Part shown: in pieces, positions 35,689 to 51,557 of the stretch
Numbering within the stretch: the stretch's first letter is position 1
Layout of the letters: the number at the start of each line of letters is the position of its first letter
Assembly (NCBI GenBank): GCA_964344485.1
Contig: CAYFNF010000001.1
Coordinates: 122,115 to 186,114 of the forward strand
Direction: 5' to 3'
Source of the DNA: an uncultured Gammaproteobacteria bacterium
GTDB taxonomy: Bacteria; Patescibacteriota; Patescibacteriia; UBA9570; XYC2-FULL-38-9
Length of the DNA stretch: 64,000 nt
Position numbers and translations under genes: made by a program
The notes under the pieces: model-generated
What the model was told of the DNA's origin: nothing
What the model saw: only the letters and a program-made list of their open reading frames with translations
The model's database searches: none

Positions 35689-36840
35689 CTATTGCGCAAT
35701 AATGATCTCACGTCCAACACTTTGCTGTGGTCGACGATATAGTAATGGAGGTCGCTGCAGAGAAAACCCCCCGTTAGAGATAATCTGTTTTATCGGTAGA
35801 TGATGTTCTTGGTTTTTGCTATACCAAAACGGAAGCGCTGCTACGATCACACCGTTTGGCGCAAGTATTGCACGGAACTCTTTAAAGACTTCGGCGTACA
35901 GTTGCTGCAGTTCTTTCTCTATAGAAGGTATCTGCTTGGGGTGCGGCGTAGGCGGTCCTAGATGGCCTTCAAAGATAATTCGGTCAACTGACTGTTTGTG
36001 TATAATACCGTTCTGCACTAGCAGCTCTGCTCGAGAAGCATGAATTGGCACTGGAGGCAGGTCCAACCACTGGAGATTTTTCTTGGTGTCTGTGACTGCT
36101 TTTCTACTGATGTCACTTCCGATCACTTGCGAATAACCGAGCAACAGCGCTTCTTGGAGTACGGTTCCTGAGCCACAGAACGGATCCAGGATCGTGGAAT
36201 CCTCTGTGGGTTGCGCTAGGTTGATCATCATGCGTGCAACTTTGGGTGGAAGCATGCCAGCGCGTACGTCTCGCTGTGGTCGGCCGTAGTCTCGCTTTGA
36301 GAACTTCTGAAACGGTTGAACTGCAAGCGTCTTGCCGAATACGATGCTGTTCGTATCTTTCAACAATACAATCTCCACTCCATTCTTCAGTAAGCGCTCT
36401 TTATGAACAATCACTGATGAGAGCTGTACTTCTTTAGACTCTACAAAACGTGAAGAGACCTCCGCATTCTTGAAGGATTTTTTCAACGCTAGCCCTAACG
36501 TTTTTATGTGCTTCCAGTGTTTCTTTAATTTGATCTCTGGTGAGAGTGCATACAGAGAAAAACCAAAATGGAACTTTGATGTTGGATCCGCTTGCTCAAT
36601 CAACCAGTCAGCAATAGCCTCTTCATCAAATTCACCGATAATCTCAACAATTTTCACAGTCCCGCCAAGTCGTTCCATGAGCGCAGCAGCGTCTAGCGGT
36701 TCTGTGCAGGCCACTAGTGCAACCGAGTGTTTCAGTTGTACATCAGTTACTGGCAGTTCTTGTGATTCAAATACCGCTATCAACTCAGCAAGCGATAACT
36801 CAGGGTGAGAACCAACGATACAAGCGTATTGATGTTTCAT
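35689..36840 (-). CDS. THUMP-domain class I SAM-dependent RNA methyltransferase (Trm14/RlmL-like)
   Basis: N-terminal THUMP-like region. Motif I ILDPFCGSGTVLQEALLLG. An LGPP (DPPY-like) motif IV. Confidence 0.65.
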   Translation of the reverse strand: MKHQYACIVGSHPELSLAELIAVFESQELPVTDVQLKHSVALVACTEPLDAAALMERLGGTVKIVEIIGEFDEEAIADWLIEQADPTSKFHFGFSLYALSPEIKLKKHWKHIKTLGLALKKSFKNAEVSSRFVESKEVQLSSVIVHKERLLKNGVEIVLLKDTNSIVFGKTLAVQPFQKFSKRDYGRPQRDVRAGMLPPKVARMMINLAQPTEDSTILDPFCGSGTVLQEALLLGYSQVIGSDISRKAVTDTKKNLQWLDLPPVPIHASRAELLVQNGIIHKQSVDRIIFEGHLGPPTPHPKQIPSIEKELQQLYAEVFKEFRAILAPNGVIVAALPFWYSKNQEHHLPIKQIISNGGFSLQRPPLLYRRPQQSVGREIIIAQ

Positions 36841-36887
36841 ATACGACTACAGTAGCATATTTTTGCGATTTCTCGTATCATATAGAC

Positions 36888-38582
36888 ATGAAGCAACCAC
36901 GCGCAGTACTCTATGGAATCGGTGTATTTATCATATGCGCAGGTATTATTATTGGTTTTCGGCACGATCACGCACTTGCAGCGCTCACTGGGTTGGGAAC
37001 TGACGCACTCGAATCCTGGTCGTGGATCGGCATGCCAGTAGACCAAGCAGGCAGCACCGTAGGCATCTCACCAGAGTCTGCATATGGATTTATCCATTTA
37101 AACTGTTTAAGCGACGCGTCGTGTGATCCAGTAACTGGAGATGACACAGACCCACTCACTGGACTAGTTGAAGATCCATATGTAGCAGTGGATTTTGATA
37201 ATTGTACGAATGGTTTATGTGAAGTCGACGGTTGGGCATGGATGGGAACCGGAGACGCAGATGTGCCAGGAACAGAGGAGAGCATTGGGTGGTTGAATTT
37301 TGACCCTGCTCCGCTGCCTTCGTCAACATATGCAGATCCAGCATGTATCGCCCTTGGTCCAGCATATTATTATCCAGCTGAGCCGTGCTATTCAGCAAAG
37401 ATCGATGAAACAAATCAAGAGGAGCTTTCGGGGTGGGCGCGTTTTGAAACGTTAGCAGAACATGGTGGTGGAGTGTTGTTTGGCGCCCCTTCTATTGTTG
37501 ATGGTGATTGGGGTTGGGTGTTACTGCGAGGAAATGTTGATCCATCAGCAGGCGGGGCTGAATACGGAGTGCTCTATCGAAATGACACACTCGAAGGATG
37601 GGCGTACTCCGGAGGCGGAACAGTAGATCCAATTGGTTTGGCCTATGACAACTCCGTCGGACTTGGGTGGTTAGACTTCTCATCTGGAGTTACGGGAACC
37701 GTCACAGGAACTGGATATGTCTCAACAGAACGAGGAGATGTGTATGTGCACGGAGGAATCAATAATACCGTAGATCCAACCACACTAACACCAACACAGT
37801 ATAACGCGACATTCTTAATTCTCTCCAGCGACAGTAACCCCATCGTAAATTTCAATAGTGAATACGCAGACGGTTTAGGCGGAGCTGACGGCATCTTTAC
37901 AGAAGAGGACTTTGAGACCATGCAGTTACCAACAGATGATCAACTCTACCGCAGTGAGCTCGGCCGTATTGATATGGATAAACTCACGACCGTTGTCTCA
38001 GGTACAGAGAATGTGTATGGCGAGACCGTCCAGAGTATCTCAAGCCTGAGCACACTTTCTGGCAACTTATTTCTTGACGGAACGGTTTATGAAACGTCCG
38101 GTGGCACTATTTCAAATGCTATAACATTTATCAGCGGTACATCATCAGACCCTTCATCTGGTGCATTTGATGCAAGCGGCACCATTATTGTAGACGGAGA
38201 CCTACGTATTGAAGCAAATACTTTCTATGAGACCGGCACCGCGCTGCTGCACTTAGCGAATCTCCCTTCTATTGCGTGGGTGGTGTTGGGAGATGTCACG
38301 ATCGCAGAAAATGTGACCAATGTGGTGGGGTCGTTCTTCATTTTTGGCGACGCCTCCACTGATGATGGGAGATTAATCACTGAAGCACCAGGTTCAGCGC
38401 AGTTACAACTCTTTGGGCTCACTATGGCGTACGGATTTGACTTGCAGCGAACGTATGAAGGTGTTCCTGGCGTGAATGAAGCAGCAGAACTCTTTTATTA
38501 TGACGGTCGAATCATCGCAAACACACCTCCAGGACTGCGAGATTACGCGTCGGTACTACCATTAATTGAATCTGAAGAGTGA
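36888..38582 (+). CDS. Large N-terminally membrane-anchored extracellular protein (564 aa); hypothetical
   Basis: Start MKQPRAVLYGIGVFIICAGIIIGF (TM anchor), then a Gly/Asp/Thr-rich ectodomain. Lies directly upstream of the pilus operon. Confidence 0.55.
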   Translation: MKQPRAVLYGIGVFIICAGIIIGFRHDHALAALTGLGTDALESWSWIGMPVDQAGSTVGISPESAYGFIHLNCLSDASCDPVTGDDTDPLTGLVEDPYVAVDFDNCTNGLCEVDGWAWMGTGDADVPGTEESIGWLNFDPAPLPSSTYADPACIALGPAYYYPAEPCYSAKIDETNQEELSGWARFETLAEHGGGVLFGAPSIVDGDWGWVLLRGNVDPSAGGAEYGVLYRNDTLEGWAYSGGGTVDPIGLAYDNSVGLGWLDFSSGVTGTVTGTGYVSTERGDVYVHGGINNTVDPTTLTPTQYNATFLILSSDSNPIVNFNSEYADGLGGADGIFTEEDFETMQLPTDDQLYRSELGRIDMDKLTTVVSGTENVYGETVQSISSLSTLSGNLFLDGTVYETSGGTISNAITFISGTSSDPSSGAFDASGTIIVDGDLRIEANTFYETGTALLHLANLPSIAWVVLGDVTIAENVTNVVGSFFIFGDASTDDGRLITEAPGSAQLQLFGLTMAYGFDLQRTYEGVPGVNEAAELFYYDGRIIANTPPGLRDYASVLPLIESEE

Positions 38583-38678
38583 TTGTTTCAATGTTATGAA
38601 CAGATTGCTTGTCATGGGCTATAAAAGATGTTATAATAGCAGGTGAACTGCTAATTATTTTTTTAGTAAAGTTAGCGT

Positions 38679-39821
38679 ATGTCACTATTCGGTTCGAATG
38701 AAAGCTATTTAGGTATCGATATCGGTAATTCAGCGCTAAAAGTCGTTGAATTAGAGAACGTGAAAGGCCGGCCAAAGCTGTTGACCTATGGGTATTTAGA
38801 GCAATCCAACGAGATCCTGACTTCTAATACAAAAGAGGCAAAAGATAAGATCATTTCAGGACTGGAACACATTCAGAAAGAGTCTAGGACCACTTCGCGT
38901 AACGTAGTTGCAGCACTACCGAGTTATACGGTTTTTACCTCGATCATCCATCTGCCCGAGATGCCAAAGAAGGAGCTAGTTGCAGCAGTGCAGTGGGAAG
39001 CTAAGAAGTTTGTACCCATGCCGCTAGAAGAGATGATTCTGGACTGGAAAATTTTAGAAGACACTAAAGTAGATTCCACTTTTTCCGCCAATGCTGCTGG
39101 TCAGAATGCAGCGCAACAGCAAGAAGCACCAGCACAAGCCGAGGGAGAGAGCCCAAAGATTAAGACTAAAGGCAAGAAGATTTTAAAGATTCTATTAACT
39201 GCAGCACCAAAGGACTTGGTGTCTCGTTATTTAGAGATCTTCAAAGAAGCAAAAATGAATTTAGTGAGCTTGGAGACAGAGAGTTTTGCACTGGAACGAG
39301 CGCTCATTGGTAATGATAAATCTCCGATTATGCTCATTGATGTTGGTGCAGTCGCTACCACGATTAGTGTAGTAGTAGATTCTGTGCCGCTCATTAACCG
39401 TAGTATTGATATCGGTGGACATACCATCACGAAAGCGATCGCGAATAGCTTGAATTTAGATGTGGCCCGAGCAGAGCAATTTAAAAAAGATTTTGGATTA
39501 ACCGAACAAGCAGGTGCAGCAGCAGGGCAGGTACCAAAGCGCATTGAGTTCATGGTATCGTCTATTATCAACGAAATTAAATACGTATTGAATCTATATC
39601 AGAGCCAGGGGCAGGGAAATATTGAAAAGATTGTGCTCGCCGGCGGTTCCGCATGGTTGCCGAATATCACTCAATATCTGAGTCAGGTATTAGGAGTTAA
39701 AGTATTTATCGGGGATCCATGGGCACGCGTGATGTATCCATTAGAGATGAAACCAGTTCTTCAACAACTTGGTTCACGTCTCGCTGTGGCAGTCGGGTTA
39801 GCAATGCGAGAGATCAGCTAA
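38679..39821 (+). CDS. pilM: Type IV pilus assembly protein PilM (actin-like ATPase fold)
   Basis: YLGIDIGNSALKVVELE N-terminus. 380 aa. First gene of the pil operon. Confidence 0.8.
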   Translation: MSLFGSNESYLGIDIGNSALKVVELENVKGRPKLLTYGYLEQSNEILTSNTKEAKDKIISGLEHIQKESRTTSRNVVAALPSYTVFTSIIHLPEMPKKELVAAVQWEAKKFVPMPLEEMILDWKILEDTKVDSTFSANAAGQNAAQQQEAPAQAEGESPKIKTKGKKILKILLTAAPKDLVSRYLEIFKEAKMNLVSLETESFALERALIGNDKSPIMLIDVGAVATTISVVVDSVPLINRSIDIGGHTITKAIANSLNLDVARAEQFKKDFGLTEQAGAAAGQVPKRIEFMVSSIINEIKYVLNLYQSQGQGNIEKIVLAGGSAWLPNITQYLSQVLGVKVFIGDPWARVMYPLEMKPVLQQLGSRLAVAVGLAMREIS

Positions 39822-39874
39822 TGCAGGTGTTGAGGAGGTGTTCTTTGTAAGCAGTATGTACCATCACTACGTCT

Positions 39875-41218
39875 ATGGGCGACATTGATTTTATATCATC
39901 AGACAAGGAGGAAAAACGATCACGGAAACGTCGGGATGATCGTGGTGTTGAGTATACGTCAGGAGAACGGCTCGACGCGCCTCCGAAAGAGAAGAAGCTC
40001 AAGGATAAGAAGAAAAAAAAGGATAAAAAGAAGAAGAAAGAGAAGACATTCAAGCAGTGGAAAAAGGAGAAAGCCAAGCAGCAGAAACCAGAGAAGACGA
40101 AAGGCCCGCAAGATCATATTCCAGAAGCACGAGAACGAGATGACGCTCCAGATTTACTGGATGATTTTGAACGTGCACAAGAGAGCACGCCAACAGTTCA
40201 TGACGCTCCAGAACGAGGAAAGGACGACGCGCCAGATTTATTAGATGCAGCAGCAGCCTCAGCGAAACCGGAGCCACCAGTACCGCAAGAGGACGAAGAG
40301 GTCGCTCCGGATCTATTACATGAATTCACCACACCAAAAGATATCGGGGAGCACCCAGCGCCGAAGCGCGATAAAGAAGAAGCAGGCGCTGAATTGCTTG
40401 CAGCAGTCACTACGGTTCATGATATTGGCGAGCATGAGGTAAAGAAGGCATTGCATAAAGACAGTGCTCCGGACATGACGCAAGTGCGGTCCGGGCCAGA
40501 GGTGCCAGAACCTGAGCGAAAAAAAGTACAGAAGAAGAGAAAGAAGCAGACGAAAAAGCAGGCGCAGCAACAGAAGAAAGGCGCTGCTCGCCCAATGTTC
40601 TCCTTAGGTGTAAATTTGATTCCAGATGAAGTGATTGCAGAGCTGGAGACACGCAATCGGTTGTTAGATTTGGGGTATACTGCACTCGGCTTGATTGCGA
40701 TTGTGTTGTGTGTGTATGGAGCGATGAATATTTACCAGCGTAAGATCGATATCGATATAGAAACCATCAAGCAAGAGATTGAATTAACGAACAGTGACAT
40801 TGAATCATTCCGGCAAGTGCGTACGGAAGCGCAGGATATGCATGATCAACTAGGCGCGCTTACTGATGTGATTGATCAACATGTCTATTGGACTCCGTTA
40901 ATTGAGACTGTTGAAGAATTAACCCTACCGACCGTGTATTATCGCTCTATGAGCGGCTCAGTTCGTACACGCAAGTTCACATTCGAAGTTGTAGGTACGG
41001 ACTACGGTCAAATCGAGAATCAAGTATGGGTATATGAACAGTCACCGTATGTACAGTCTGTCACCACTAGTGCTGCGTCGCAGTATTCTCCGTCAACAGA
41101 GATAACGGAATCCGGAAACGAAGAAGCTGAGACCGAAGAAACCGATGAAGAGCAGTACGTGTCGTTTTCTTTAGTGGTGGAATTTTCGCCTGAATTGTTT
41201 CACCGAGTAATACAATAG
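39875..41218 (+). CDS. pilN: PilN-like pilus assembly protein with a long disordered N-terminal extension carrying repeated acidic APDLL motifs
   Basis: K-rich segment, then three to four [DE][DE]xAPDLL[DH] repeats, a TM helix (LGYTALGLIAIVLCVYGAMNIY) and a PilN-like periplasmic domain. Confidence 0.6.
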   Translation: MGDIDFISSDKEEKRSRKRRDDRGVEYTSGERLDAPPKEKKLKDKKKKKDKKKKKEKTFKQWKKEKAKQQKPEKTKGPQDHIPEARERDDAPDLLDDFERAQESTPTVHDAPERGKDDAPDLLDAAAASAKPEPPVPQEDEEVAPDLLHEFTTPKDIGEHPAPKRDKEEAGAELLAAVTTVHDIGEHEVKKALHKDSAPDMTQVRSGPEVPEPERKKVQKKRKKQTKKQAQQQKKGAARPMFSLGVNLIPDEVIAELETRNRLLDLGYTALGLIAIVLCVYGAMNIYQRKIDIDIETIKQEIELTNSDIESFRQVRTEAQDMHDQLGALTDVIDQHVYWTPLIETVEELTLPTVYYRSMSGSVRTRKFTFEVVGTDYGQIENQVWVYEQSPYVQSVTTSAASQYSPSTEITESGNEEAETEETDEEQYVSFSLVVEFSPELFHRVIQ

Positions 41219-41220
41219 CT

Positions 41221-41877
41221 ATGAATTTTGATTGGAGAAAAATCTATCGAGCACTGAACGCATTTATCACTCGGTTTTATAAGTTTTTTCTTGTTGCTGA
41301 AGTGCTGATCATTTTCTTTATCGGCTGGCTAGTGTTGTTGCGCGGGGAGTACCGCATTATTCAAGAGAGCGGCGTGCTTGAGTATGATTTAGTGACTGAG
41401 CAATTACAAGATCAGCAGGATCGCCTGGTGGAGTTGCGATATCTAGAAGAGCAATATACCACATTGGATCAAGAGCGATTGCGACAACTAGAAGAGGTGC
41501 TTCCGCATTCCTACAATCCGACGGCGCTGATCACGACCATGAATCAATTTGCAGAGCAAGCATCCATTGAGATCGCAAGCATTGACGTAGCACAGACCGG
41601 AACTATAACCACTGAAACTACTAGTACTGCGACAACGGATTCTGGAGAAGAGGAGGAGACAATAGTGGAAGTAGCGAATCCTAATATCAAGACCGTTACA
41701 ATTACGATGAATATCAAGAACAATGAAGGGACATATGGAGAATTGAAGTATTTCCTCTCCGCGCTCGAGACCTTTGTACCTATTCTTGATATGCGACAGC
41801 TTTCATTTTCACCTGGAACCGACAGCATGGCACTACAGTTACAGACATACTATTTTAATTCATCCTCGGCATTATGA
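41221..41877 (+). CDS. pilO: PilO-like pilus assembly protein
   Basis: N-terminal TM helix, then a coiled-coil region and a small periplasmic domain. Position between pilN and pilP. Confidence 0.55.
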   Translation: MNFDWRKIYRALNAFITRFYKFFLVAEVLIIFFIGWLVLLRGEYRIIQESGVLEYDLVTEQLQDQQDRLVELRYLEEQYTTLDQERLRQLEEVLPHSYNPTALITTMNQFAEQASIEIASIDVAQTGTITTETTSTATTDSGEEEETIVEVANPNIKTVTITMNIKNNEGTYGELKYFLSALETFVPILDMRQLSFSPGTDSMALQLQTYYFNSSSAL

Positions 41878-42836
41878 CACCTTCGATCGAAGAACGAAAA
41901 CGAGTACGACGCCGGAAGAAGCAGTTCCGAACACACCATACATCTGGAAAGGAGATTGTATTGTTAGCATTGGTAACAGTGATCGGGGCCTTGGCAGTGT
42001 ATACATCTCAAGATAGACATACTGCGTTTGGCTTGATGGCTGAGTACGCGTACGCAGACGAGATTCCTATTATGACGTCGTTCCGAGTGGAGCCGCTCAT
42101 TAGCGAAGCTGTTCTTGAGCTGGATTTTACAGTAGGCGAAGACGATGTTGTGCAAACACAAGGAATTCTGGTTGACGCAACTAATCCCCCTCCAGTGGAA
42201 GAGGTGCAAGCGTTGAATACTCGTGTGGGAGGGGAAGTCGCTCTGTTCTGGATACGACCCGAGATCGTCTCCTCAGTAAATATCTATCGACGAGAGTTGC
42301 ATGCAGAAGAAGAGGAAGAATTTGAACTTATTCAAGAAAACAATACAGAGCTGTCCTATATTGACGAAGAAGTCAAGAACACTGTGATGTATGAATATCA
42401 GCTTTATTCAACTATGAAGTATGAAGGTGAGTGGCATGAATCCAAGAAATCGCTATCCATTGTGGTACAGCCAGCAGATGAGATTCCACCGTTCTCTCCA
42501 ACTGATATCACCGTGACTACGATAACGACAAAGAAGGGCGCTGCAGGACTTCAGATCTCCTGGGCGAATCCAACTGATGAGGATTTTGATCATGTAAAGA
42601 TATATCGATCCTCAGATTATGGTACGCGTGGAGAAGAGATCGTCACAGTGAAGAAAGGAAAGGATACTACCTATGTAGATACAGAAGCAGATACAAATGT
42701 GATTCAGTACTACACCGTGGTGTCGTACGATGTTGCAGGCAATGGGTCGAGTGAGGACTTCCAAATTCCACTTGCTGGCAACCAGAACCCATTTGCTCCA
42801 TTTCAAGATAATACTCAGCCGAATGAAGGACAGTGA
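41874..42836 (+). CDS. PilP-like / Fn3-like domain pilus assembly protein
   Basis: TM helix IVLLALVTVIGALAVY. Beta-rich C-terminal region. Operon context. Confidence 0.45.
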   Translation: MTPSIEERKRVRRRKKQFRTHHTSGKEIVLLALVTVIGALAVYTSQDRHTAFGLMAEYAYADEIPIMTSFRVEPLISEAVLELDFTVGEDDVVQTQGILVDATNPPPVEEVQALNTRVGGEVALFWIRPEIVSSVNIYRRELHAEEEEEFELIQENNTELSYIDEEVKNTVMYEYQLYSTMKYEGEWHESKKSLSIVVQPADEIPPFSPTDITVTTITTKKGAAGLQISWANPTDEDFDHVKIYRSSDYGTRGEEIVTVKKGKDTTYVDTEADTNVIQYYTVVSYDVAGNGSSEDFQIPLAGNQNPFAPFQDNTQPNEGQ

Positions 42837-44553
42837 TAAAGTAACAATCCTAGAACAGATACAAAGCCGACAGTTGTTATCTCCTCAACAGCTGACGGAA
42901 TTAGCAGAAGAGTCTCGTGCTTCCGGGACTGATATGTTGGATTTGATAGTCACACAGCAGTTGATTGATGAAGAGCAGTTTACAGAAGTAAAAGCTGAGG
43001 TACTTCGAGTTCCGTATGTGCATTTGGTTGATCAAGACATCCCTAATGATGTGTTAAATCTGGTGAGCCAGGATATTGCAGAGAACTACCAACTGGTTCC
43101 GTGGTCAAAGCAGGAAGGAGAAGTGTCGGTTGCAATGGCAGATCCGCATGATTACAAAGCAATCGAAGCATTAGATTTTATTGGACGTAAAGAGAATATT
43201 AAATGGAAGTACTACCTTGCCTCTGATTCAAGCATTTCGTCTGTATTGCGGCAGTACGCGGATCTCACAGACGAGGTCGCTGAAGCGTTGCAAGCTAGCG
43301 AAGAAGGGATGCACGAGGATATTGAAGAAGAAGTGGAAGACTCGGTAAAGAGCGCGCCGATCTCCAAGATGGTGGCAGTGATTTTACGTTATGCAGTGGA
43401 AGGGAGTGCATCGGACGTGCATATTGAACCGACGAAAGACGGTACTCGAGTACGCTATCGTGTGGATGGAGTACTGCATACCTCCTTGCAGATGCCCAAG
43501 AACGTTCACAATTCATTGGTGGCAAGAATCAAAGTACTAGCGAATCTAAAACTAGATGAGACGCGCTTACCTCAAGACGGACGGTTTCATAGTCAGATAG
43601 AAGGACGAGAGGTTGATTTCCGTGTCTCGACATTACCGGTACTTGGTCAAGAGAAAGTGGTGTTACGTATTCTAGATAAAGCAATTGGTATTCGCACCCT
43701 CGCTGAACTTGGGTTTCATGATCGGAATTTACATATGATCGAGAATCATTTAGAGCGTCCACATGGAATGATCCTGGTCACTGGACCGACTGGTTCTGGT
43801 AAATCCACAACACTGTATTCGATTCTACAGGACTTGAATCAAGAAGAGCGGAATATCATTACACTAGAGGATCCAGTAGAGTACAACATGCCAGGGATCT
43901 CTCAGTCACAGATCCATCCGGAGATCGGGTTGACCTTTGCGCGCGGTCTTCGTTCTATCTTGCGTCAGGATCCAGACATTATCATGGTCGGTGAGGTTCG
44001 AGACAATGAAACAGCAGAGCTAGCGATTCATGCTGCGCTCACAGGGCACATGCTCTTGAGCACGTTGCATACAACTGATGCGCTTGGTGCGATTCCGCGA
44101 TTGATTGACATGAAAGCAGAGTCATTCTTGATTGCTTCAGCGCTCAATTTGGTGATTGCTCAGCGGTTAGTGCGAAAGAACTGTGTAGACTGCGTGACAG
44201 AGACACAGCTACCAGTAAAAACAGAGAGTGAAGTATTGCGTGAACTACAATCTATTCCAGAGAAATCTCTTCCAAAAGACATCACCATGAAGTTACCGTT
44301 AACAGTCTATCACGGAGTAGGCTGTCCGAAATGTGAAGGGAGTGGATATCACGGTCGAGTTGCTATCTCTGAGGTGATTGAGATCACTCCACGGCTACAA
44401 GACATCATCGCTTCTGAGGAGATAAATCAATTTGAGTTAGTGCATCGAGAGCTGGAAGAACAAGGTATGGTGAATATGCGCCAAGACGGTATTATCCTTG
44501 CGCTTCGAGGTCAGACCACTATTGAAGAGGTGTGGACAGCAACAACTGAGTAA
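42823..44553 (+). CDS. pilB: Type IV pilus assembly (extension) ATPase PilB/GspE
   Basis: GSPII_E N-terminal domain. Walker A GPTGSGKSTT, Asp box LEDPVEY, Walker B DIIMVGEVRD and His box GHMLLSTLHT are all intact. Confidence 0.9.
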   Translation: MKDSDKVTILEQIQSRQLLSPQQLTELAEESRASGTDMLDLIVTQQLIDEEQFTEVKAEVLRVPYVHLVDQDIPNDVLNLVSQDIAENYQLVPWSKQEGEVSVAMADPHDYKAIEALDFIGRKENIKWKYYLASDSSISSVLRQYADLTDEVAEALQASEEGMHEDIEEEVEDSVKSAPISKMVAVILRYAVEGSASDVHIEPTKDGTRVRYRVDGVLHTSLQMPKNVHNSLVARIKVLANLKLDETRLPQDGRFHSQIEGREVDFRVSTLPVLGQEKVVLRILDKAIGIRTLAELGFHDRNLHMIENHLERPHGMILVTGPTGSGKSTTLYSILQDLNQEERNIITLEDPVEYNMPGISQSQIHPEIGLTFARGLRSILRQDPDIIMVGEVRDNETAELAIHAALTGHMLLSTLHTTDALGAIPRLIDMKAESFLIASALNLVIAQRLVRKNCVDCVTETQLPVKTESEVLRELQSIPEKSLPKDITMKLPLTVYHGVGCPKCEGSGYHGRVAISEVIEITPRLQDIIASEEINQFELVHRELEEQGMVNMRQDGIILALRGQTTIEEVWTATTE

Positions 44554-44566
44554 TTTTTTTACACAT

Positions 44567-45625
44567 ATGGACACAGCAGAACAACTCGCAATCCAAAAGA
44601 TCATCGCTATGGTAGACACCTACCGAGCGGCGTCTTTACATCTTTCGGTTGGAAATCCACCGATGATTCGTGTGGGAGAGAAGTTAGTGCCAGTTCCAGA
44701 GCAGTCCATTGTGACTCCAGAGTTTATGGAGCACATTATTGAAGCTTGGCTTGATGAGAAGAATACTGAACGGCTACAGGTGAATAAAGAATTGATTATT
44801 GCAAAGACATTCGAGACGAAGAAGCGGTTTCGTATCTCTGTGTTCTACCAGCAAGGGCACTTGAGCGCGACGTTGATTCCAATACCTGATGTACTACCGT
44901 CGATTGCAGAGTTGGATCTTCCATCTGAAGCGCAACAGCTCGTAAATTACAAGTCCGGACTCGTCTTATTTATTGGTCCATATAATTCACAAAAAGCGAT
45001 TACTGTCGCGAGCTTTATCGAATATCTTAATCAAACAGCACAGAAGAGTATACTGACGATCGAACACCCAGTTGAGTATCTGTTTAGCGATAACCAATGT
45101 GTGATCGATCAGCGCGAGGTTGGCAAAGATGTGCACAGTACTACTCAGGGGTTGGAATTTGCATTGAATGAGGATGCGGACGTGATCATGGTTTCAGAAT
45201 TAACGGACAGTGAAAGTTTCCAAAAGGTATTAGAGCTTACGAATACTGGTAAGGTGGTCTATGCACTACTGCATGTGAATACTGTACCTTCGGCTATTGA
45301 TACGTTTATTCATAGCTTCGATGCGTCGGATCAAGGGCAGGCACGTGCGGAGCTGGCTTCGAATTTAGTCGGTATTATAAATCAGCGTAGCTTGGTAAGT
45401 AGCACTGGAGATAAAGTGAGTATCTCGGAGGTGATGATACCGAATCAAGCAGTGCGCACGATTATTCAGAAAGGAGAGGTATATCAAATTAACAACATAC
45501 TGCAGACCTCTCGAGGTGAAGGCATGAGGAGTCTGGACGCAGCGCTGCGTTCAGCAGTGGAAGCCGGCAAGATCAGTCAAGCAGAAGCAGCAAAGGTTGC
45601 AGTAGACCGTTCACAGTTTCAATAA
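44567..45625 (+). CDS. PilT-like retraction-ATPase homologue with degenerate catalytic motifs (probable pseudo-ATPase)
   Basis: Aligns to PilT, but Walker A is GPYNSQKAIT (vs GPTGSGKSTT), the Asp box is IEHPVEY (D to H), and the His box is GKVVYALLHV (H to K). Confidence 0.7.
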   Translation: MDTAEQLAIQKIIAMVDTYRAASLHLSVGNPPMIRVGEKLVPVPEQSIVTPEFMEHIIEAWLDEKNTERLQVNKELIIAKTFETKKRFRISVFYQQGHLSATLIPIPDVLPSIAELDLPSEAQQLVNYKSGLVLFIGPYNSQKAITVASFIEYLNQTAQKSILTIEHPVEYLFSDNQCVIDQREVGKDVHSTTQGLEFALNEDADVIMVSELTDSESFQKVLELTNTGKVVYALLHVNTVPSAIDTFIHSFDASDQGQARAELASNLVGIINQRSLVSSTGDKVSISEVMIPNQAVRTIIQKGEVYQINNILQTSRGEGMRSLDAALRSAVEAGKISQAEAAKVAVDRSQFQ

Positions 45626-45631
45626 TACGAT

Positions 45632-46840
45632 ATGGCAGAGTTTGTATATAAAGCACGTAATAGAGCCGGAGACTTAGTTGAAGGCTCGCTTGATGCACCA
45701 ACTATGGAAGTGGTGCAAGACACGATTCGCGAAAAGGATCTGATTTTACTTTCTGTGCGTAAAATGTCTGACCGACAGGTGCTGCAGCGAGTACAAGAAT
45801 TAACGCGCGGCGTTAAAGCAAAAGAGATTGTGGTGTTTGCACGACAACTGTCGACACTCATCTCGGCAACAGTTCCGATTGTTCGGTCTCTGCGAATTTT
45901 AATAAAACAGACTGAGTCCAAAGTACTGCGCACGATCGTCACAGATATTGCTGATGAAGTTGATGGTGGATCGAGGTTGTCTGCTGCCTTGCATCGACAT
46001 CCACGTGTGTTTGACGACTTCTTTGTACACATGATCCGTGCTGGGGAGACCACTGGTCGTCTGGATGAGGTCTTACTTTACTTAGCTGAGCAGAAAGAGA
46101 AGGACTATCAATTAATGCAGCGTATTATTAGCGCATTGATCTATCCAGTATTCATTGTCCTTGCACTTATTGCAATCTTTTTCTTCATGATGATCTACGT
46201 TGTTCCGCGCATGTTAACGGTAGTGATAGAAAGCGGTGCTGAGTTACCGTTAGTTACTAAGATATTGATTACAGTGAGTGATTTTATGCAGGGATTCTGG
46301 TGGTTGTTTGCTATTCTTGCTCTCGCTGGGATCGCTGCGTACGTGATGATGAAATCTAATCCAATGAGTAGACGGTTCTTAGACGAACAGCGGTTACGTA
46401 TTCCGGTGCTCGGTAAGATTATGCACCATATTTACATTGCACGTATCAGCCGCAGCCTCGCGAATCTACTTGCTGCAGGCGTACCAGTAACACGGTCGAT
46501 CGAGATCTCTGCTGATATTGCGGGAAACTATCTCTATCGAGAGATTCTACTCCAAGCGCGAGAAGATGTGGAAGCCGGGCATTCGCTCTCTGAGTCATTA
46601 GAGCGGCATAAATGGGTTCCGCCTATGGTCACGCAGATGATGGGGGTGGGTGAAGAGACCGGGCGTATGGACCAGATCCTTGTTAAAGTTGCTGATTTCT
46701 ATATAGGAGAAGTAGACTCACTCACCAATGCATTAGTGAGCTTGATTGAGCCGATTATCCTAATTTTATTGGGCATTGGTGCTCTTATCATTGTTTCAGG
46801 AATCTTGTTACCGATCTACACGATTACGTCGCAGTTTTAA
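45632..46840 (+). CDS. pilC: Type IV pilus inner-membrane platform protein PilC (GspF family)
   Basis: MAEFVYKARNRAGDLVEGSL N-terminus. Two GspF repeats. 402 aa. Confidence 0.85.
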   Translation: MAEFVYKARNRAGDLVEGSLDAPTMEVVQDTIREKDLILLSVRKMSDRQVLQRVQELTRGVKAKEIVVFARQLSTLISATVPIVRSLRILIKQTESKVLRTIVTDIADEVDGGSRLSAALHRHPRVFDDFFVHMIRAGETTGRLDEVLLYLAEQKEKDYQLMQRIISALIYPVFIVLALIAIFFFMMIYVVPRMLTVVIESGAELPLVTKILITVSDFMQGFWWLFAILALAGIAAYVMMKSNPMSRRFLDEQRLRIPVLGKIMHHIYIARISRSLANLLAAGVPVTRSIEISADIAGNYLYREILLQAREDVEAGHSLSESLERHKWVPPMVTQMMGVGEETGRMDQILVKVADFYIGEVDSLTNALVSLIEPIILILLGIGALIIVSGILLPIYTITSQF

Positions 46841-46863
46841 AAGAAGAGAGGGTCTCTAGAGAG

Positions 46864-46892
46864 TTGTTGCGTATTTGTATCTATGGTATAAT
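46864..46892 (+). promoter_or_regulatory. Extended -10 promoter upstream of pilA (TGgTATAAT)
   Basis: tggTATAAT at about 46884-46892, with a weak -35 TTGTTG 17 nt upstream. Confidence 0.5.
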
Positions 46893-46943
46893 ACAGTATA
46901 TTCATTTATATATATAAATAATTAAGTAATAACGTGCGAAACC

Positions 46944-47465
46944 ATGCAAAAAGACAAAAAAGGTTTCACATTGATCGAGCTGTTAATCGTTATTGCGATT
47001 ATCGGTTTATTGGCGACGTTAGCTATTGTGTCATTGACATCAGCACAACGACGTGCTCGTGATACAAAACGTGTTGCAGATATGAAATCTCTGCAAACCG
47101 GTCTAGAATTATTCTGGAACGCTAGCTCTCGCTATCCGCAATTAGGCGTAGATGCTAATGACTGGGCAGGACTTGGATCAGCACTTGAGAGCTACATGAC
47201 TCAAGTTCCAACAGATCCAAATCATGCTGATGGTGATTTGTACTTCTACTATACCGATAACGGAACAGAATATTGGATTGGTTCAACACTTGAAAGCAGT
47301 AGTGAACAAGCGTTGACGCAGGATGTAGACGGAGCATTGAACGACGGAGCGTACTACTATATCACCTCCACTGGAGTGGGTGATGACATTGACGGTACTA
47401 TTGCTCCTGGTGATGAGCCAGACTGTACAGATGATGTCTATTGTCTCCACGGTACAGCATCGTGA
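46944..47465 (+). CDS. pilA: Type IV major pilin (prepilin)
   Basis: Leader MQKDKKG followed by FTLIELLIVIAIIGLLATLAIVSL, the class III signal and N-methyl-Phe site. Confidence 0.85.
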   Translation: MQKDKKGFTLIELLIVIAIIGLLATLAIVSLTSAQRRARDTKRVADMKSLQTGLELFWNASSRYPQLGVDANDWAGLGSALESYMTQVPTDPNHADGDLYFYYTDNGTEYWIGSTLESSSEQALTQDVDGALNDGAYYYITSTGVGDDIDGTIAPGDEPDCTDDVYCLHGTAS

Positions 47466-47510
47466 TACGGTAGTTATATACTACTCAAATCCCCGGTCAT
47501 TCCGGGGATT

Positions 47511-48329
47511 TTGTTTTATTCCTTGGGCAAAGCAGTGTATAATAGATCTATGCTTGAAATGAGCTTTGGAATAGTCATTTTCTTCTTACTCGGCACTGTT
47601 GTTGGGAGTTTCATTAATGCCACGGAGTATCGGCTCGCGCAGAGTAAGCGTGTATTCTGGGATAAGGGAAAAGGCTTCACACGAAGTGCGTGTACGCATT
47701 GTGATACAACGATTTCTGCTACGGATTTGATCCCACTGCTTTCGTTTCTGTTTTTACGTGGGCGATGCCGTTCTTGTAGAAAGAAAATTTCGTGGCAGTA
47801 TCCGTTGGTAGAGTTAGTGAGCGGGCTGTTGTTTGTGTGCGCTGCTGTTCGATTTGGCTATGGCCTAGAGGCGTTGGCGATCGCTTTTTTCTTCGGGATT
47901 CTGTTATTTATATTTCTATATGACTATAAGCATCAGTTGATTTTAGATGTAGTCTCTGTACCAGCAATGATATTTGCTGGTGCGGTTGGGGTGTTGCTTG
48001 GAAAAGAATTATTAGACTTGGTTATCGGTGCTGCTATCGGCGGTGTCTTCTTTTGGCTGCAGTACGCAGTGTCTCGCGGAAAGTGGATCGGCGGTGGAGA
48101 TATACGTTTAGGCATTCTGATGGGGCTGATGCTGGGGTGGAAGGTGACTATTGCAGCATTAGTTCTTGCATATGTTGGGGGCGCTCTTGTTGCTGTAGCG
48201 CTTCTGTTACAGAAAAAAGCACAGATGCAGTCACGCATTCCATTTGGTACATTTTTAAGCGCAGCGACGTTTATCTGCTTGCTATTTGGTGAAGAAATTA
48301 TTGATTGGTACTTTCAATTACTCATATGA
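47511..48329 (+). CDS. pilD: Prepilin peptidase PilD (A24 family) with an N-terminal Zn-finger
   Basis: CTHC...CRSCRK tetra-Cys and multi-TM aspartic peptidase architecture. The start may instead be MLEMSF at 47550. Confidence 0.8.
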   Translation: MFYSLGKAVYNRSMLEMSFGIVIFFLLGTVVGSFINATEYRLAQSKRVFWDKGKGFTRSACTHCDTTISATDLIPLLSFLFLRGRCRSCRKKISWQYPLVELVSGLLFVCAAVRFGYGLEALAIAFFFGILLFIFLYDYKHQLILDVVSVPAMIFAGAVGVLLGKELLDLVIGAAIGGVFFWLQYAVSRGKWIGGGDIRLGILMGLMLGWKVTIAALVLAYVGGALVAVALLLQKKAQMQSRIPFGTFLSAATFICLLFGEEIIDWYFQLLI

Positions 48330-48910
48330 AGGCACAACGAACAGCTGGGTTCACTATCATCGAGATGTTAGTAGTGGTGGCTGTTGTTGGGGTGGTCGCT
48401 ACGATTATTGCTGTGTCCTTTGTAGGTACTGATTCATCTCAACGGCTGACACAAGCGCGAACGGTCTTAAGTGCTGACGTACATACTGTATTAACGTGGG
48501 CACAGTCAGGGAAAATCGAAGAAAGTACTGGAACGACCCCATATGGGTACGGCATTGTGTTTTGGTTGATCTATCCCGGGCCGGATACAAAAGACTACTC
48601 TATATTTGCAGACCTTAATGATAATGGGGAGTATGATCCTGGAGAGCCGCTGATCAAAGAAGTGAATTTTGAACTAGACGAACTATTAGAAGACATTACA
48701 CTGATTGACTGTACTCCTACGAAGTCGCCTGGAATTGTCATGGGTCCTCCACCGCCACCAACACAGTGTGAATTATACGTCGAGACTCAGAGCGGAGATA
48801 TCACAGCCGTGGGTGCAGCAACCGGGGATATGGAGATAACTCTTCAGCATACAGCGACATTAGATCAAGAAGTAATATCAATAAACACTAGAACTGGTCA
48901 ATTGTATTAA
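48326..48910 (+). CDS. Minor pilin / pseudopilin
   Basis: MKAQRTAGFTIIEMLVVVAVVGVV prepilin N-terminus. Confidence 0.7.
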   Translation: MKAQRTAGFTIIEMLVVVAVVGVVATIIAVSFVGTDSSQRLTQARTVLSADVHTVLTWAQSGKIEESTGTTPYGYGIVFWLIYPGPDTKDYSIFADLNDNGEYDPGEPLIKEVNFELDELLEDITLIDCTPTKSPGIVMGPPPPPTQCELYVETQSGDITAVGAATGDMEITLQHTATLDQEVISINTRTGQLY

Positions 48911-48911
48911 T

Positions 48912-49610
48912 ATGAGACGTGCTCCAGGGTTTACATTATTAGAATCCATCATCGCGATCGCAGTGGTCCTCTTTGGATTGGTGAGTATTGTCGCGCTGAG
49001 CACTTCTTCTTTAATCTCTAGTGAAATCACAGAGGAGGAATTTGTAGCAGCAAACCTCGCTCGCGAGGGTATGGAGCTCGTTCGTCAGATGCGTGATTCG
49101 AATTGGCTAAAATTTGATACAACGTCGGACCCATTAATTGAATGGGATATGGGAATGCATCATATTGAGACAACAGGAAACAATGATTACAGCGCGGTCA
49201 TCACATTTCTTTCATCGTACACGTCGGATGCTTTATCCTTTGAACCTGATGCTCATGGTGACACCTGCACTGATGCAACAGGAGTATTCAATTGTACGAA
49301 TACCTGGATAGACACCACGGACAGTGTCTATTTCCAGTTAGGGTCAGAAGCGACATTTGATTCCACAGATCCACAGTATAGTGAAACGAAATATTCTCGT
49401 ATGGTATTTCTGTATCCAATCTGTCGAGATGTAAATAACTCTGCTGATGAGCAGATATTAACTGTAGAAGGAATGGACACGTGCAGTTCGTACTTTGGAG
49501 CGGATTATGAACAAGTAGGAATTGATGCAATTGTAGAGGTGCAGTATTCGATTCGCGGTGATACCAAGACCTATACATTAGAAGAATACATCTATGACTG
49601 GAAATTCTAG
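48912..49610 (+). CDS. Minor pilin (PilV-like)
   Basis: MRRAPGFTLLESIIAIAVVLFGL prepilin N-terminus. Confidence 0.7.
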   Translation: MRRAPGFTLLESIIAIAVVLFGLVSIVALSTSSLISSEITEEEFVAANLAREGMELVRQMRDSNWLKFDTTSDPLIEWDMGMHHIETTGNNDYSAVITFLSSYTSDALSFEPDAHGDTCTDATGVFNCTNTWIDTTDSVYFQLGSEATFDSTDPQYSETKYSRMVFLYPICRDVNNSADEQILTVEGMDTCSSYFGADYEQVGIDAIVEVQYSIRGDTKTYTLEEYIYDWKF

Positions 49611-50202
49611 AAAAACTCGACAACAAGGAATGACACTCATTGAAGTGCTGATTGCGGTTGCTGTTATTAGCATTACTATTGTGTTAGCAGTGAATATCTT
49701 TTTGTTATTTAGCGAGAGCTCTTCTGAGGCAACGAATCAGTTGCATCTTCAAGCAAATGCGCGGCAGATGATGTCGCTTGTTTCGGAGCGAACCCGTGAA
49801 GGGTTTGTTGATTATAATTTTTATACCGGCCCACCGTCAGCTGAGCCAGAATTCTTGGCGATGCGCGACTTAGACGGTATTCAAACAGTCTTCTGGTTTT
49901 ACAATGATGGCGTGGATACGCACGTCTACTTATGTGATGATATGCCGTACGACATGTCGTGCGATAAGACCGTGCCAGATCCATCAGTTGATCCTTTATG
50001 GTCTAAGATGAATGATGAGGATGTGTACTTAACTACTGGCTTCTTTACTATATCTCCGGATTCGGACCCGTATTTTAGTGGCTCGTTGGTTCCAGCTACT
50101 GATGATGCTCCATTAATTACAGTGGTGATGCAGCTAGAAAATGATATTGCTCAGTCTCAGTTGTTCCAAACTACATTAACGCCTCGATTCTATGTTCGTT
50201 AG
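49594..50202 (+). CDS. Minor pilin (PilW-like)
   Basis: QQGMTLIEVLIAVAVISITIVL prepilin N-terminus. Confidence 0.7.
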   Translation: MTGNSRKTRQQGMTLIEVLIAVAVISITIVLAVNIFLLFSESSSEATNQLHLQANARQMMSLVSERTREGFVDYNFYTGPPSAEPEFLAMRDLDGIQTVFWFYNDGVDTHVYLCDDMPYDMSCDKTVPDPSVDPLWSKMNDEDVYLTTGFFTISPDSDPYFSGSLVPATDDAPLITVVMQLENDIAQSQLFQTTLTPRFYVR

Positions 50203-51055
50203 GCGCTTACAACAGAAGTCGCAAGATGGTGCAGCAATGCTAGTAGTGCTGTTGTTGTTGGCTGCCTTTGTGTTAATTGGTTTTACACTCGCATCGTTAA
50301 CGTATCGGGGACTGAAAATTGCTCGTATGTATGAAGATTCCCTGCAATCTTTTTATGCTTCAGAAACTGGTATTGAACGAGCCCTAGACATTACACAACT
50401 TGGTCGAGTGGAGGGCGAAACACTGGATGATACAATCATGGAAATTGAGAATTATGCAGCACCAGCCGGGCCAGTCTCATTGTCTTCAGGTGTAGCAGAG
50501 TACTACATTGATGATGTTGCAACCTCTGACACCATAGATTCATTAACTGTTCCTGTTCCAACGTTTCGAAATACACAGATAGATCTATATGACCCAGACG
50601 CTCCATTCACCACGTATATGAATATTGAGTCAGCGCAGTTCTACTGGAATGAGCCAGACTGTCCAGTGGATTCAAATTTTGAAGTGAGTTGGTATGAGTT
50701 CGATGATGAGTATTTTGACATGATGGAGGATGCTGTCAGTAAGCAGGTCTTTACTTGTGTGTCCGGAGCTGGAGATTGGGATTGCGAGGCAATTTCAAAT
50801 GTACCTGTTCCAAATACGAACTACATCGCACGCTTGAAAGCATTAGAATGCGCGATTCTAGGCATGAATATTACGTTCTATGATGCAGCAGACGCTGGTG
50901 GAAGTGTTGAGGAAATACCGTCAGGGGTAAAAGTAGTTTCTATCGGAGAAGCACAGCAATCACAGCGACGGATGATCTCATTGAGTCAATGGAAGCCCAG
51001 TGCCTCAGGGCTAGTAGATTTTGTCCTGTTTTCTATAGAAGATATAGTGAAATAA
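50192..51055 (+). CDS. Minor pilin (PilX-like)
   Basis: N-terminal hydrophobic helix AAMLVVLLLLAAFVLIGFTLASL. Last gene of the pil operon. Confidence 0.55.
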   Translation: MFVRRLQQKSQDGAAMLVVLLLLAAFVLIGFTLASLTYRGLKIARMYEDSLQSFYASETGIERALDITQLGRVEGETLDDTIMEIENYAAPAGPVSLSSGVAEYYIDDVATSDTIDSLTVPVPTFRNTQIDLYDPDAPFTTYMNIESAQFYWNEPDCPVDSNFEVSWYEFDDEYFDMMEDAVSKQVFTCVSGAGDWDCEAISNVPVPNTNYIARLKALECAILGMNITFYDAADAGGSVEEIPSGVKVVSIGEAQQSQRRMISLSQWKPSASGLVDFVLFSIEDIVK

Positions 51056-51130
51056 GGAGTTTTTTTGCGTAGTCAGACCTTGACTTTTTTTATTGTCAGT
51101 GATATACAAGTGGCTTGAGGACGAAGGGAG

Positions 51131-51499
51131 ATGTACTGTATGCTGGACCGACAGTTGATTCAGCAGTTCGTAGAGAAGGGTTTCCGGTGGACCGTGGTGG
51201 TCACCCAGGACAGCGGTGGTCTCGAACCCGAGGCCGTGGCTGCGGTGGCCAACGCCAGGCGCATGGGATGCGCGGTCGGGTGCGTATTCGTGGGTGTCTC
51301 CGCGGAGGCGCTCGAAGCCGAGACTCGGGACTTCGGTCTGGCGCTCGCGCGCGCGTGCGACGAGGCCGAGCCGGTGGTCGAAGACAGCATCACCATGAGT
51401 GAGTTCGGCACGGACCGCAAGTTCACCCTGGTGATCTTCCCGCCGATCAATGCCGAGATCCAGGCCTGTTCGGATCGCGAGCCCGTAGAGCGCCCCTGA
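51131..51499 (+). CDS. Hypothetical protein, 122 aa, high GC (compositionally foreign)
   Basis: AAGGGAG SD upstream of the ATG at 51131 (or 51140). GC far above the flanks. No recognisable motif. Confidence 0.45.
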   Translation: MYCMLDRQLIQQFVEKGFRWTVVVTQDSGGLEPEAVAAVANARRMGCAVGCVFVGVSAEALEAETRDFGLALARACDEAEPVVEDSITMSEFGTDRKFTLVIFPPINAEIQACSDREPVERP

Positions 51500-51523
51500 T
51501 CTACCAACGCCTCATTTTTTTAT

Positions 51524-51546
51524 ACAAAAAAACCGCAGTAGCTGCG
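51524..51546 (-). terminator. Rho-independent terminator of the metallophosphoesterase gene
   Basis: On the minus strand: ccgcag-cta-ctgcgg hairpin followed by T8. Confidence 0.6.
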
Positions 51547-51557
51547 GCGCAAGTAGT

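Follow-up and report, generated by a model that had tools for sequence, protein, structure and literature searches.

The 64,000-nucleotide stretch analyzed here (the window: positions 122,115 to 186,114 of contig CAYFNF010000001.1, GenBank assembly GCA_964344485.1, forward strand, deposited as an uncultured Gammaproteobacteria bacterium) carries a complete and densely packed type IV pilus (T4P) operon on its forward strand, at 38679-51055, recognized from the list of open reading frames (ORFs) and from Pfam and NCBIfam matches. Between the genes for the extension ATPase PilB and the platform protein PilC lies a gene of the PilT retraction ATPase family, at 44567-45625, whose catalytic motifs are degraded; this gene and its protein, together with their degenerate relatives, are called pilT* and PilT* below. 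A first-pass annotation made from the sequence alone had described a degraded PilT-like ATPase inside an otherwise intact operon, and the operon is indeed intact from pilM to the minor pilins. The ORF list opens pilT* at a TTG (44498-45625), but the ATG at 44567 is preferred, giving 352 amino acids (aa), because homologues start there too (consensus MxTAxQL). The spacers on either side are short (13 nt from the pilB stop, 6 nt to the pilC start), and a sequence scan of the operon found no promoter-like or terminator-like site in the pilB-pilT*-pilC interval; pilT* would be co-transcribed with both neighbors.

PilT* aligns with PilT from end to end, as had been claimed: residues 9-348 match positions 2-341 of the 343 in the TIGR01420 pilT_fam model at 283.6 bits, below the curated cutoff of 319.1, and the best sequence match in the PDB is Aquifex aeolicus PilT (2ewv; E = 2.6e-61, residues 5-348). 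Alignment to PilT, PilU and PilB references, the check proposed at the outset, places PilT closest: Pseudomonas aeruginosa PilU (9n32) is a weaker match (E = 8e-47), and the PilB/GspE models of NCBIfam reach 54-70 bits where their cutoffs exceed 600. Pfam finds no MshEN domain and confines its T2SSE match to residues 122-274; the N-terminal MshEN/N1 domain and tetracysteine zinc motif that mark PilB/GspE proteins are missing. A PilU or PilB identity is ruled out by these family scores. The AlphaFold2 model (mean predicted local distance difference test, pLDDT, 93.3; predicted template-modeling score, pTM, 0.90) has the N-terminal and RecA-like C-terminal domains of PilT, with no PilB-type extension or zinc finger. 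Foldseek superimposes it on Geobacter metallireducens PilT4 (6ojx_A) with a template-modeling (TM) score of 0.92 and a root-mean-square deviation of 1.8 Å, and its top 30 structures are all PilT, PilU or PilT2.

The motif strings first reported for the Walker A, Asp and His boxes were all read correctly, as the alignment with 2ewv confirms, and the damage reaches beyond them (Table 1). Set against the Walker A pattern GxxGxGK[ST], PilT* reads GPYNSQKA, with Gln in place of the Gly before the Lys and Ala in place of the Ser/Thr after it. The Asp-box residue D167, invariant in 157 of 157 canonical PilTs, is His. The Walker B core is VSELTD where 2ewv has VGEMRD: the catalytic Glu (E211, in the pattern DxDVxxVGEMRD) is kept, but with G210S and R213T around it, and only nine of 24 close relatives keep that Glu. 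Of the two histidines of the His box (TGHxxxxTLHT), the first is Lys and the second, H236, remains (TGKVVYALLHV). The AIRNLIRE motif is also degraded, and its R301, an Arg in 149 of the 157 canonical proteins, is Gln in PilT* and in 20 of the 24 members of its subclade. Further losses (D77I, R104I, R201N, R246T, R301Q) fall on positions 95-100% conserved in the canonical set, in which D77, R104, R201, R213 and R246 are invariant. The adjacent PilB has, in translation, every motif that had been credited to it: GPTGSGKSTT, LEDPVEY, DPDIIMVGEVRD and TGHMLLSTLHTT, as well as a CxxC...CxxC pair.

Table 1. Positions of pilT*, its motif remnants and the other features of the T4P operon (coordinates are those of the window)
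Feature	Position	Strand	Description
pilT* (subject gene)	44567..45625	+	352 aa; end-to-end match to TIGR01420; PilT fold by AlphaFold2 and Foldseek
Walker A remnant GPYNSQKAIT	44975..45004	+	residues 137-146; canonical GPTGSGKSTT; G140N, G142Q, S144A, T145I; Lys kept
Asp box remnant IEHPVEY	45059..45079	+	residues 165-171; canonical IEDPIEY; D167H; E166 and E170 kept
Walker B region DADVIMVSELTD	45173..45208	+	residues 203-214; canonical DPDVILVGEMRD; G210S, R213T
His box remnant TGKVVYALLHVN	45245..45280	+	residues 227-238; 2ewv TGHLVFGTLHTN; canonical TGHLVFxTLHTN; H229K
AIRNLIRE equivalent AVRTIIQK	45449..45472	+	residues 295-302
Promoter-like site upstream of pilM	38609..38637	+	11 of 12 consensus positions plus extended TG; sole strong forward-strand site in the operon
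pilM	38679..39821	+	Pfam PilM_2, E = 4e-46
pilN-position gene	39875..41218	+	no Pfam match; position syntenic in relatives; long Lys/Glu/Asp-rich N-terminal region
pilO	41221..41877	+	Pfam PilO, E = 3.2e-5
Conserved gene between pilO and pilB, function unassigned	41874..42836	+	no Pfam match; syntenic homologue in L003 has an Fn3-type match
pilB, extension ATPase	42823..44553	+	Pfam T2SSE 420.7 bits plus MshEN; TIGR02538 527.6 bits; motifs intact
pilC, platform protein	45632..46840	+	Pfam T2SSF twice, 202.9 bits; NCBIfam PilC and GspF models
Major pilin	46944..47465	+	class III signal; Pfam N_methyl, E = 1.5e-9
Terminator-like hairpin 3' of the pilin gene	47487..47511	+	10-bp stem, 6 GC pairs, T-rich tail
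pilD, prepilin peptidase	47511..48329	+	Pfam A24_N_bact and Peptidase_A24
Four minor-pilin-like genes	48305..48910, 48912..49610, 49594..50202, 50192..51055	+	pilin-like N-termini; weak N_methyl matches in the syntenic genes of relatives

One explanation for such motifs, raised when they were first noticed, is a frameshift or sequencing artefact. It is ruled out: the frame is unbroken, an independent contig from the European Nucleotide Archive (L089, 4.3 kb) differs from the window at two of 4300 bases, and the same decay runs through more than 100 homologues. L089 is the nearest match to the window gene, and a look-up of the exact protein sequence gave none. The two L089 differences each change an amino acid of PilT* (L327Q and S329T, at 45545-45553), a sample too small to interpret; with two substitutions only, dN/dS (the ratio of nonsynonymous to synonymous substitution rates, dN and dS) between the window and L089 is uninformative.

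The decay belongs to a family. A word-indexed search with PilT* returned 168 matches, of which the nearest 35 or so (36-61% identity), several labelled Kerfeldbacteria or Patescibacteria, are all motif-degraded. A profile search with 41 degenerate sequences against 1.84 billion representatives of 50%-identity clusters puts at least 63 such clusters in the degenerate clade (63 of the best 150 representatives). Seven catalytic positions were scored (the Walker A Gly, Lys and Ser/Thr, the Asp-box Asp, the Walker B Glu and the two His-box histidines) in 276 PilT domains: 100 keep four or fewer, and 167 keep six or seven. In an unrooted neighbor-joining tree, a single split places 97 of the 100 low-scoring domains, together with four intermediates, on the same side, and leaving out the motif columns gives that split again. 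Midpoint rooting of this tree was discarded in favor of the unrooted analysis, as it divides the degenerate clade artificially. On neighbor-joining evidence the degenerate PilTs are judged to be a near-monophyletic Patescibacteria clade, and across it the catalytic positions are not conserved. The family is large and apparently undescribed: the literature on natural degenerate or inactive PilTs, and on PilT Walker motifs in the Candidate Phyla Radiation (CPR) or Kerfeldbacteria, does not describe this clade in the incomplete coverage available.

Within the clade there are two tiers of decay. The first comprises the 77 members outside the Kerfeldbacteria subclade, nearly all of which retain G137, G142 and a Ser/Thr at position 144 (76 of 77 in each case), with the Walker A Lys replaced by Arg in 48, as in a P-loop of the form GSGR[ST]TT; the Asp-box Asp, the Walker B Gly-Glu, R201, R213 and both histidines are mostly lost. 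The second is the Kerfeldbacteria subclade itself (n = 24), to which the PilT* of the window belongs: here G142 and Lys143 are each lost in 21 members and R104 in all 24, and H229K is common to 22. The residues at the catalytic positions have become a mixture: Q10/R8/K3/M2/T1 at the Walker A Lys, E9/D9/S2/A2/H1/R1 at the Walker B Glu, Q7/H6/K4/E3/R2/D1 at D167 and N13/H7/S2/I1/E1 at the second His-box His. The first tier looks like a phosphate-binding loop (P-loop) retained without catalysis; in the second, nucleotide binding itself seems dispensable, and its members probably no longer need to bind Mg-ATP.

The two tiers bear on the idea that PilT* is a nucleotide sensor, binding ATP, ADP or another nucleotide without hydrolysis, with its occupancy gating PilB or PilC. 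The nearly invariant P-loop scaffold of the first tier, even with Arg mostly in place of the Lys, speaks for such a sensor, as do E166, E170 and R87, which are still invariant. Against it stands the decayed P-loop of the Kerfeldbacteria subclade, in which G142, Lys143 and R104 have gone as just described, and the four substitutions G140N, G142Q, S144A and T145I of the window protein; nucleotide sensing is therefore unlikely as a conserved function in that subclade, and as an account of PilT* in general we think it quite improbable.

The position of the gene is as constant as its motifs are not. Every examined PilT* locus that includes pilB has the order pilM-N-O-x-pilB-(receiver)-pilT*-pilC, so that pilT* lies within T4P machinery, next to pilB and pilC, as a PilT gene should. 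Other Patescibacteria have a canonical PilT in the same pilB/pilC slot (P0037/L007, L015, L025, L029 and others), and because the slot is shared pilT* is a positional orthologue of PilT and no extra paralogue. The first-pass proposal of a non-catalytic PilT paralog thus survives in its first term, which family-wide decay, fold, slot and purifying selection all favor, and not in its second. Among the best 80 loci of GTDB species representatives in the matches listed, 17 are degenerate, carrying the labels Kerfeld-, Komeili-, Buchanan- or Nomurabacteria, unnamed Patescibacteria or “uncultured Gammaproteobacteria”; those labelled Saccharibacteria, Sungiibacteriota, Giovannonibacteria or Spechtbacterales are canonical. 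In all 17 degenerate loci checked, the Walker A and Asp boxes of PilB are intact. Five loci with a degenerate PilT in a Patescibacteria-type operon (L013, L014, L019, L023, L082) are titled “uncultured Gammaproteobacteria bacterium,” a label that is probably wrong. Carriers of PilT* include assembly GCA_016182555.1, the 746-kb contig with P0016 and the 1.15-Mb contig JBMOKY010000001.1.

Some variations on this layout were also seen. A single-domain response-regulator receiver gene stands between pilB and pilT in many Patescibacteria loci, canonical and degenerate, with 23 distinct loci matched (for example L005 9601-10014, L008 9410-9790, L090 9615-10001, L091 3708-4103). It has been lost from the Kerfeldbacteria subclade, the window included (44553-44567), leaving a pilB-pilT* gap of 8-17 nt; the subclade without the receiver gene is the one with the most decayed P-loop. 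Orphan pilT*-pilM pairs, which have neither pilB nor pilC in the 10 kb around them, occur in L013 (654-2782), L016 (10001-12120) and L028 (10001-12112), in one case on a contig of 1.15 Mb; this sub-group keeps the Walker A Lys and Ser/Thr and has lost the His box, and its existence suggests a second copy in some genomes. Tandem PilT-domain proteins are present among the cluster representatives (P0121-P0127, of 700-1024 aa, P0128, P0155, P0140, P0205 and P0214), mostly with two near-canonical domains. High-scoring representatives of 700-1000 aa were considered as fusions containing PilT* and set aside, since they are mostly tandem canonical PilT-PilT proteins. In P0128 and P0155 a degenerate N-terminal PilT domain is joined to a canonical one, as a real fusion or through gene-calling read-through.

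Is the gene still under selection? In canonical and degenerate proteins alike, R35, R87, G131, G137, N155, T164, E166, P168, E170, Q182-R183-E184, D188 and D203 are invariant or nearly so, and about 30 positions, such as Y19, N30, P44, F53, W61, D175, K229 and P292, are conserved in the Kerfeldbacteria subclade only. In the one usable locus pair (L005/L012), dS is saturated (>2), so that the dN values are the safer comparison: pilT* has a dN of 0.140 (dN/dS 0.058), next to 0.135 (0.060) for PilB, 0.142 (0.116) for PilC and 0.172 (0.107) for PilM. Over Patescibacteria loci more widely, canonical PilT is better conserved than PilB (55.1% vs 48.3% identity; PilT higher in 96% of 210 pairs), and PilT* is less so (42.3% vs 51.6%; higher in 1% of 136 pairs). 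Taken together, the fold, the conserved positions, the dN values and these identity comparisons indicate that constraint has loosened and been redirected without vanishing; purifying selection keeps the PilT* protein as a whole.

That PilT* evolves faster than PilB, the opposite of canonical PilT, could also mean that the gene is a functionless relic, a slowly decaying pseudogene, and it would fit this that the only two differences from the near-identical L089 are nonsynonymous changes in pilT*. A relic is nonetheless very hard to reconcile with an ORF that is intact and full length in all clade members, down to about 30% identity and over the whole range of clusters, with a dN equal to those of PilB and PilC in the L005/L012 pair, with the subclade-specific conserved positions, with a predicted fold of high confidence, or with a reduced and tightly packed genome, and we give the idea little credence.

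The features of a pseudoenzyme are found together here: a conserved fold, catalytic residues lost and variable among orthologues, and purifying selection. Several points weigh against taking PilT* for one. It keeps K143, E211 and H236, which correspond to K136, E204 and H229 of P. aeruginosa PilT, a nuance that the first-pass description of degraded catalytic signatures missed; PilT* may have residual nucleotide binding or feeble hydrolysis. The exact degenerate/canonical split has a bootstrap of 11/100 in a tree made by neighbor joining only, with a mean Jaccard overlap of 0.95, from which the low value reflects a few wandering sequences. The selection estimate comes from the single saturated pair. 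Taken furthest, the three retained residues, in a fold that is intact in the model, would make PilT* an active retraction ATPase with unorthodox motifs. This seems to us highly implausible: the Mg-coordinating Ser/Thr, the Gly before the Lys, D167, R104, R201 and R213 are lost, the last four of them invariant in the 157 canonical PilTs, and K143, E211 and H236 are freely replaced in close relatives, so that selection is not maintaining the catalytic site. The sequence evidence argues against an ATP-powered retraction motor, and PilT* is, with considerable confidence, interpreted as a non-catalytic pseudo-enzyme kept by selection.

What might such a protein do? In P. aeruginosa, PilT E204A and H229A have lost function, and with it twitching motility (PMC6858323). 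Inactivated Vibrio cholerae PilT variants keep partial function that depends on PilU (PMC6762196); the ATPase-dead K136A protein engages the machine stably rather than transiently, forms PilC-dependent foci and bridges PilU to the platform (10.1101/2025.10.30.685630). For V. cholerae PilT modeled with PilC, an ipTM of 0.66 is reported. By analogy with this engineered V. cholerae PilT, PilT* would retain the two-domain fold, no longer hydrolyze ATP, assemble into a ring and dock on PilC, and once docked would stay on the platform rather than cycle. Docking on the T4P platform is, on this analogy, a reasonably probable mode of action. For the gene as a whole, we lean toward a positional orthologue of PilT turned pseudo-ATPase, its fold kept, predicted to be non-hydrolyzing and to dock without generating force.

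A PilT* that cannot cycle would for that reason either act as a brake, lock or clutch in competition with PilB or recruit an unlinked motor. In the first case it would be a placeholder, brake or clutch whose competition with PilB ends extension, leaving the pilus locked as a static tether or subject to slow, motor-independent retraction. We put forward tentatively that PilT* is such a PilB-competing brake or clutch, in a cell with no other retraction motor.

In the second case PilT* would be an adaptor, a dead docking ring that recruits a working PilT- or PilU-type ATPase whose gene lies elsewhere in the genome, and retraction would be powered normally. The Vibrio work is the model for this, ATPase-dead V. 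cholerae PilT supporting PilU-driven retraction and bridging PilU to PilC (PMC6762196; 10.1101/2025.10.30.685630), and the composition of P0128 and P0155, each joining a degenerate and a canonical PilT domain, implies that pairings of dead and live PilT domains occur in nature. The candidate partner is harder to find. No PilT/PilB-family gene besides pilB and pilT* is present in the 64-kb window, and the other degenerate loci that were read have none in the surrounding 10 kb or so. No genome with both a degenerate and a canonical locus appears among the best 80 GTDB loci listed, which is weak evidence, and no contig carrying both was found among the word-indexed search matches, likewise a weak negative. 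The saccharibacterium Nanosynbacter lyticus TM7x is described with a single PilT (PMC11623550), and CPR genomes are small. The adaptor is thus an unlikely, if not negligible, alternative to the brake or clutch.

The brake can be extended to the clade as a whole in a form that is more speculative, and that we consider doubtful: a large Patescibacteria branch (Kerfeld-, Komeili-, Buchanan- and Nomurabacteria-labelled, with many unnamed members) would lack any retraction motor, PilT having become a “dead ring” that needs no nucleotide and takes turns with PilB on PilC. If so, the contest between a live motor and a pseudo-motor would decide whether the pilus stops, locks or retracts passively. Such a mode of T4P control is so far undescribed, and it could suit episymbionts needing long-lived host tethers. 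Host attachment and DNA uptake in ultrasmall CPR bacteria are both thought to depend on type IV pili.

Among the proteins of the T4P machine PilT is usually the most conserved, and its ATPase activity is regarded as its whole purpose; the surprise is that a broad, old CPR lineage keeps it in its operon slot while the catalytic site decays. If the pseudo-ATPase reading is confirmed, PilT has a selectable role independent of ATP hydrolysis, PilT* is a natural counterpart of the engineered dead-PilT scaffold in Vibrio, and surveys that equate a “PilT” match with twitching or retractile pili over-call in these lineages. The natural series from canonical PilT, through proteins with an intact P-loop and Lys changed to Arg, to those with the P-loop gone also offers a way to separate the surfaces used for docking from those used for catalysis.

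The surroundings of pilT* agree with its Patescibacteria relatives. The genes neighboring the operon (ychF, a methyltransferase, a metallophosphoesterase, ligA and an amidase) have the order seen in Candidatus Kerfeldbacteria, and the source genome is Kerfeldbacteria-like (CPR). Within the operon, the pilB ORF is listed from 42730 (607 aa), giving a 107-nt overlap with the upstream gene (42730-42836); its start is likely 42823 (MKDSDK..., 576 aa), as homologues are called at 574-588 aa. The pilN-position protein (447 aa) begins with about 230 residues of Lys/Glu/Asp-rich low-complexity sequence before a membrane segment, and relatives align only to its C-terminal 26-45%. Just 5' of pilM is a 621-aa ORF with no Pfam match (36717-38582); the same position holds an unannotated gene of 546-554 aa in Kerfeldbacteria relatives and one of 1230 aa in the more distant L005, and the product may be a pilus-associated surface protein. 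At the other end, a spacer of about 500 bp (51056-51557) lies between the last minor-pilin gene and the metallophosphoesterase gene, and the only ORFs in it, on both strands, are Arg/Gly-rich; the two genes almost abut in relatives. Further along, two tandem 460-aa ORFs (60188-61570 and 62126-63508) share 57% identity and have no Pfam match, in a segment whose local G+C of 0.55-0.58, against about 0.45 in the rest of the window, could be foreign or unusual. No Rfam families were found in the window.

How does PilT* compare with known systems? It is like canonical PilT (TIGR01420; 2ewv, 3jvv, 6ojx) in length, two-domain fold, pilB/pilC slot and many non-catalytic invariant residues. It is unlike it in its degraded Walker A, Asp, Walker B (surroundings), His and AIRNLIRE motifs, in the absence of D77, R104, R201, R213 and R246, in scoring below the TIGR01420 cutoff and in its rate of evolution, which exceeds that of PilB where the rate of canonical PilT is the lower of the two.

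PilU, the accessory retraction ATPase that depends on PilT, is a member of the same PilT/PilU family and is likewise not known to have a canonical AIRNLIRE motif. It differs in being normally encoded after pilT (PMC6762196), not between pilB and pilC. Engineered dead PilTs (V. cholerae K136A; P. aeruginosa E204A and H229A) and the natural V. cholerae MO10 variant resemble what is proposed for PilT*, a motor-less PilT able to sit on PilC as a scaffold (PMC6762196; 10.1101/2025.10.30.685630). These are, however, single-residue changes in canonical proteins that work with a co-encoded PilU, whereas PilT* is an ancient whole clade, with many sites lost and no PilU seen nearby.

Comparable in setting is the T4P-1 locus of the saccharibacterium TM7x, from the same superphylum and with pilM, pilN, pilO, pilB, pilT, pilC and pilD; unlike PilT*, its PilT is reported to have well conserved Walker A and B boxes (PMC11623550). 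In the Saccharibacteria loci read here, canonical PilT likewise scores seven of seven catalytic positions.

Another parallel is the archaellum protein ArlH (FlaH), which is KaiC-like, regulates the motor ATPase ArlI, and binds ATP without hydrolyzing it. Its subfamily, RecA/KaiC-like rather than PilT-like, is unrelated, it works in another system, and its Walker A motif is retained; the likeness to PilT* is one of concept, in that a type IV filament machine keeps a degenerate ATPase fold alongside its true motor ATPase.

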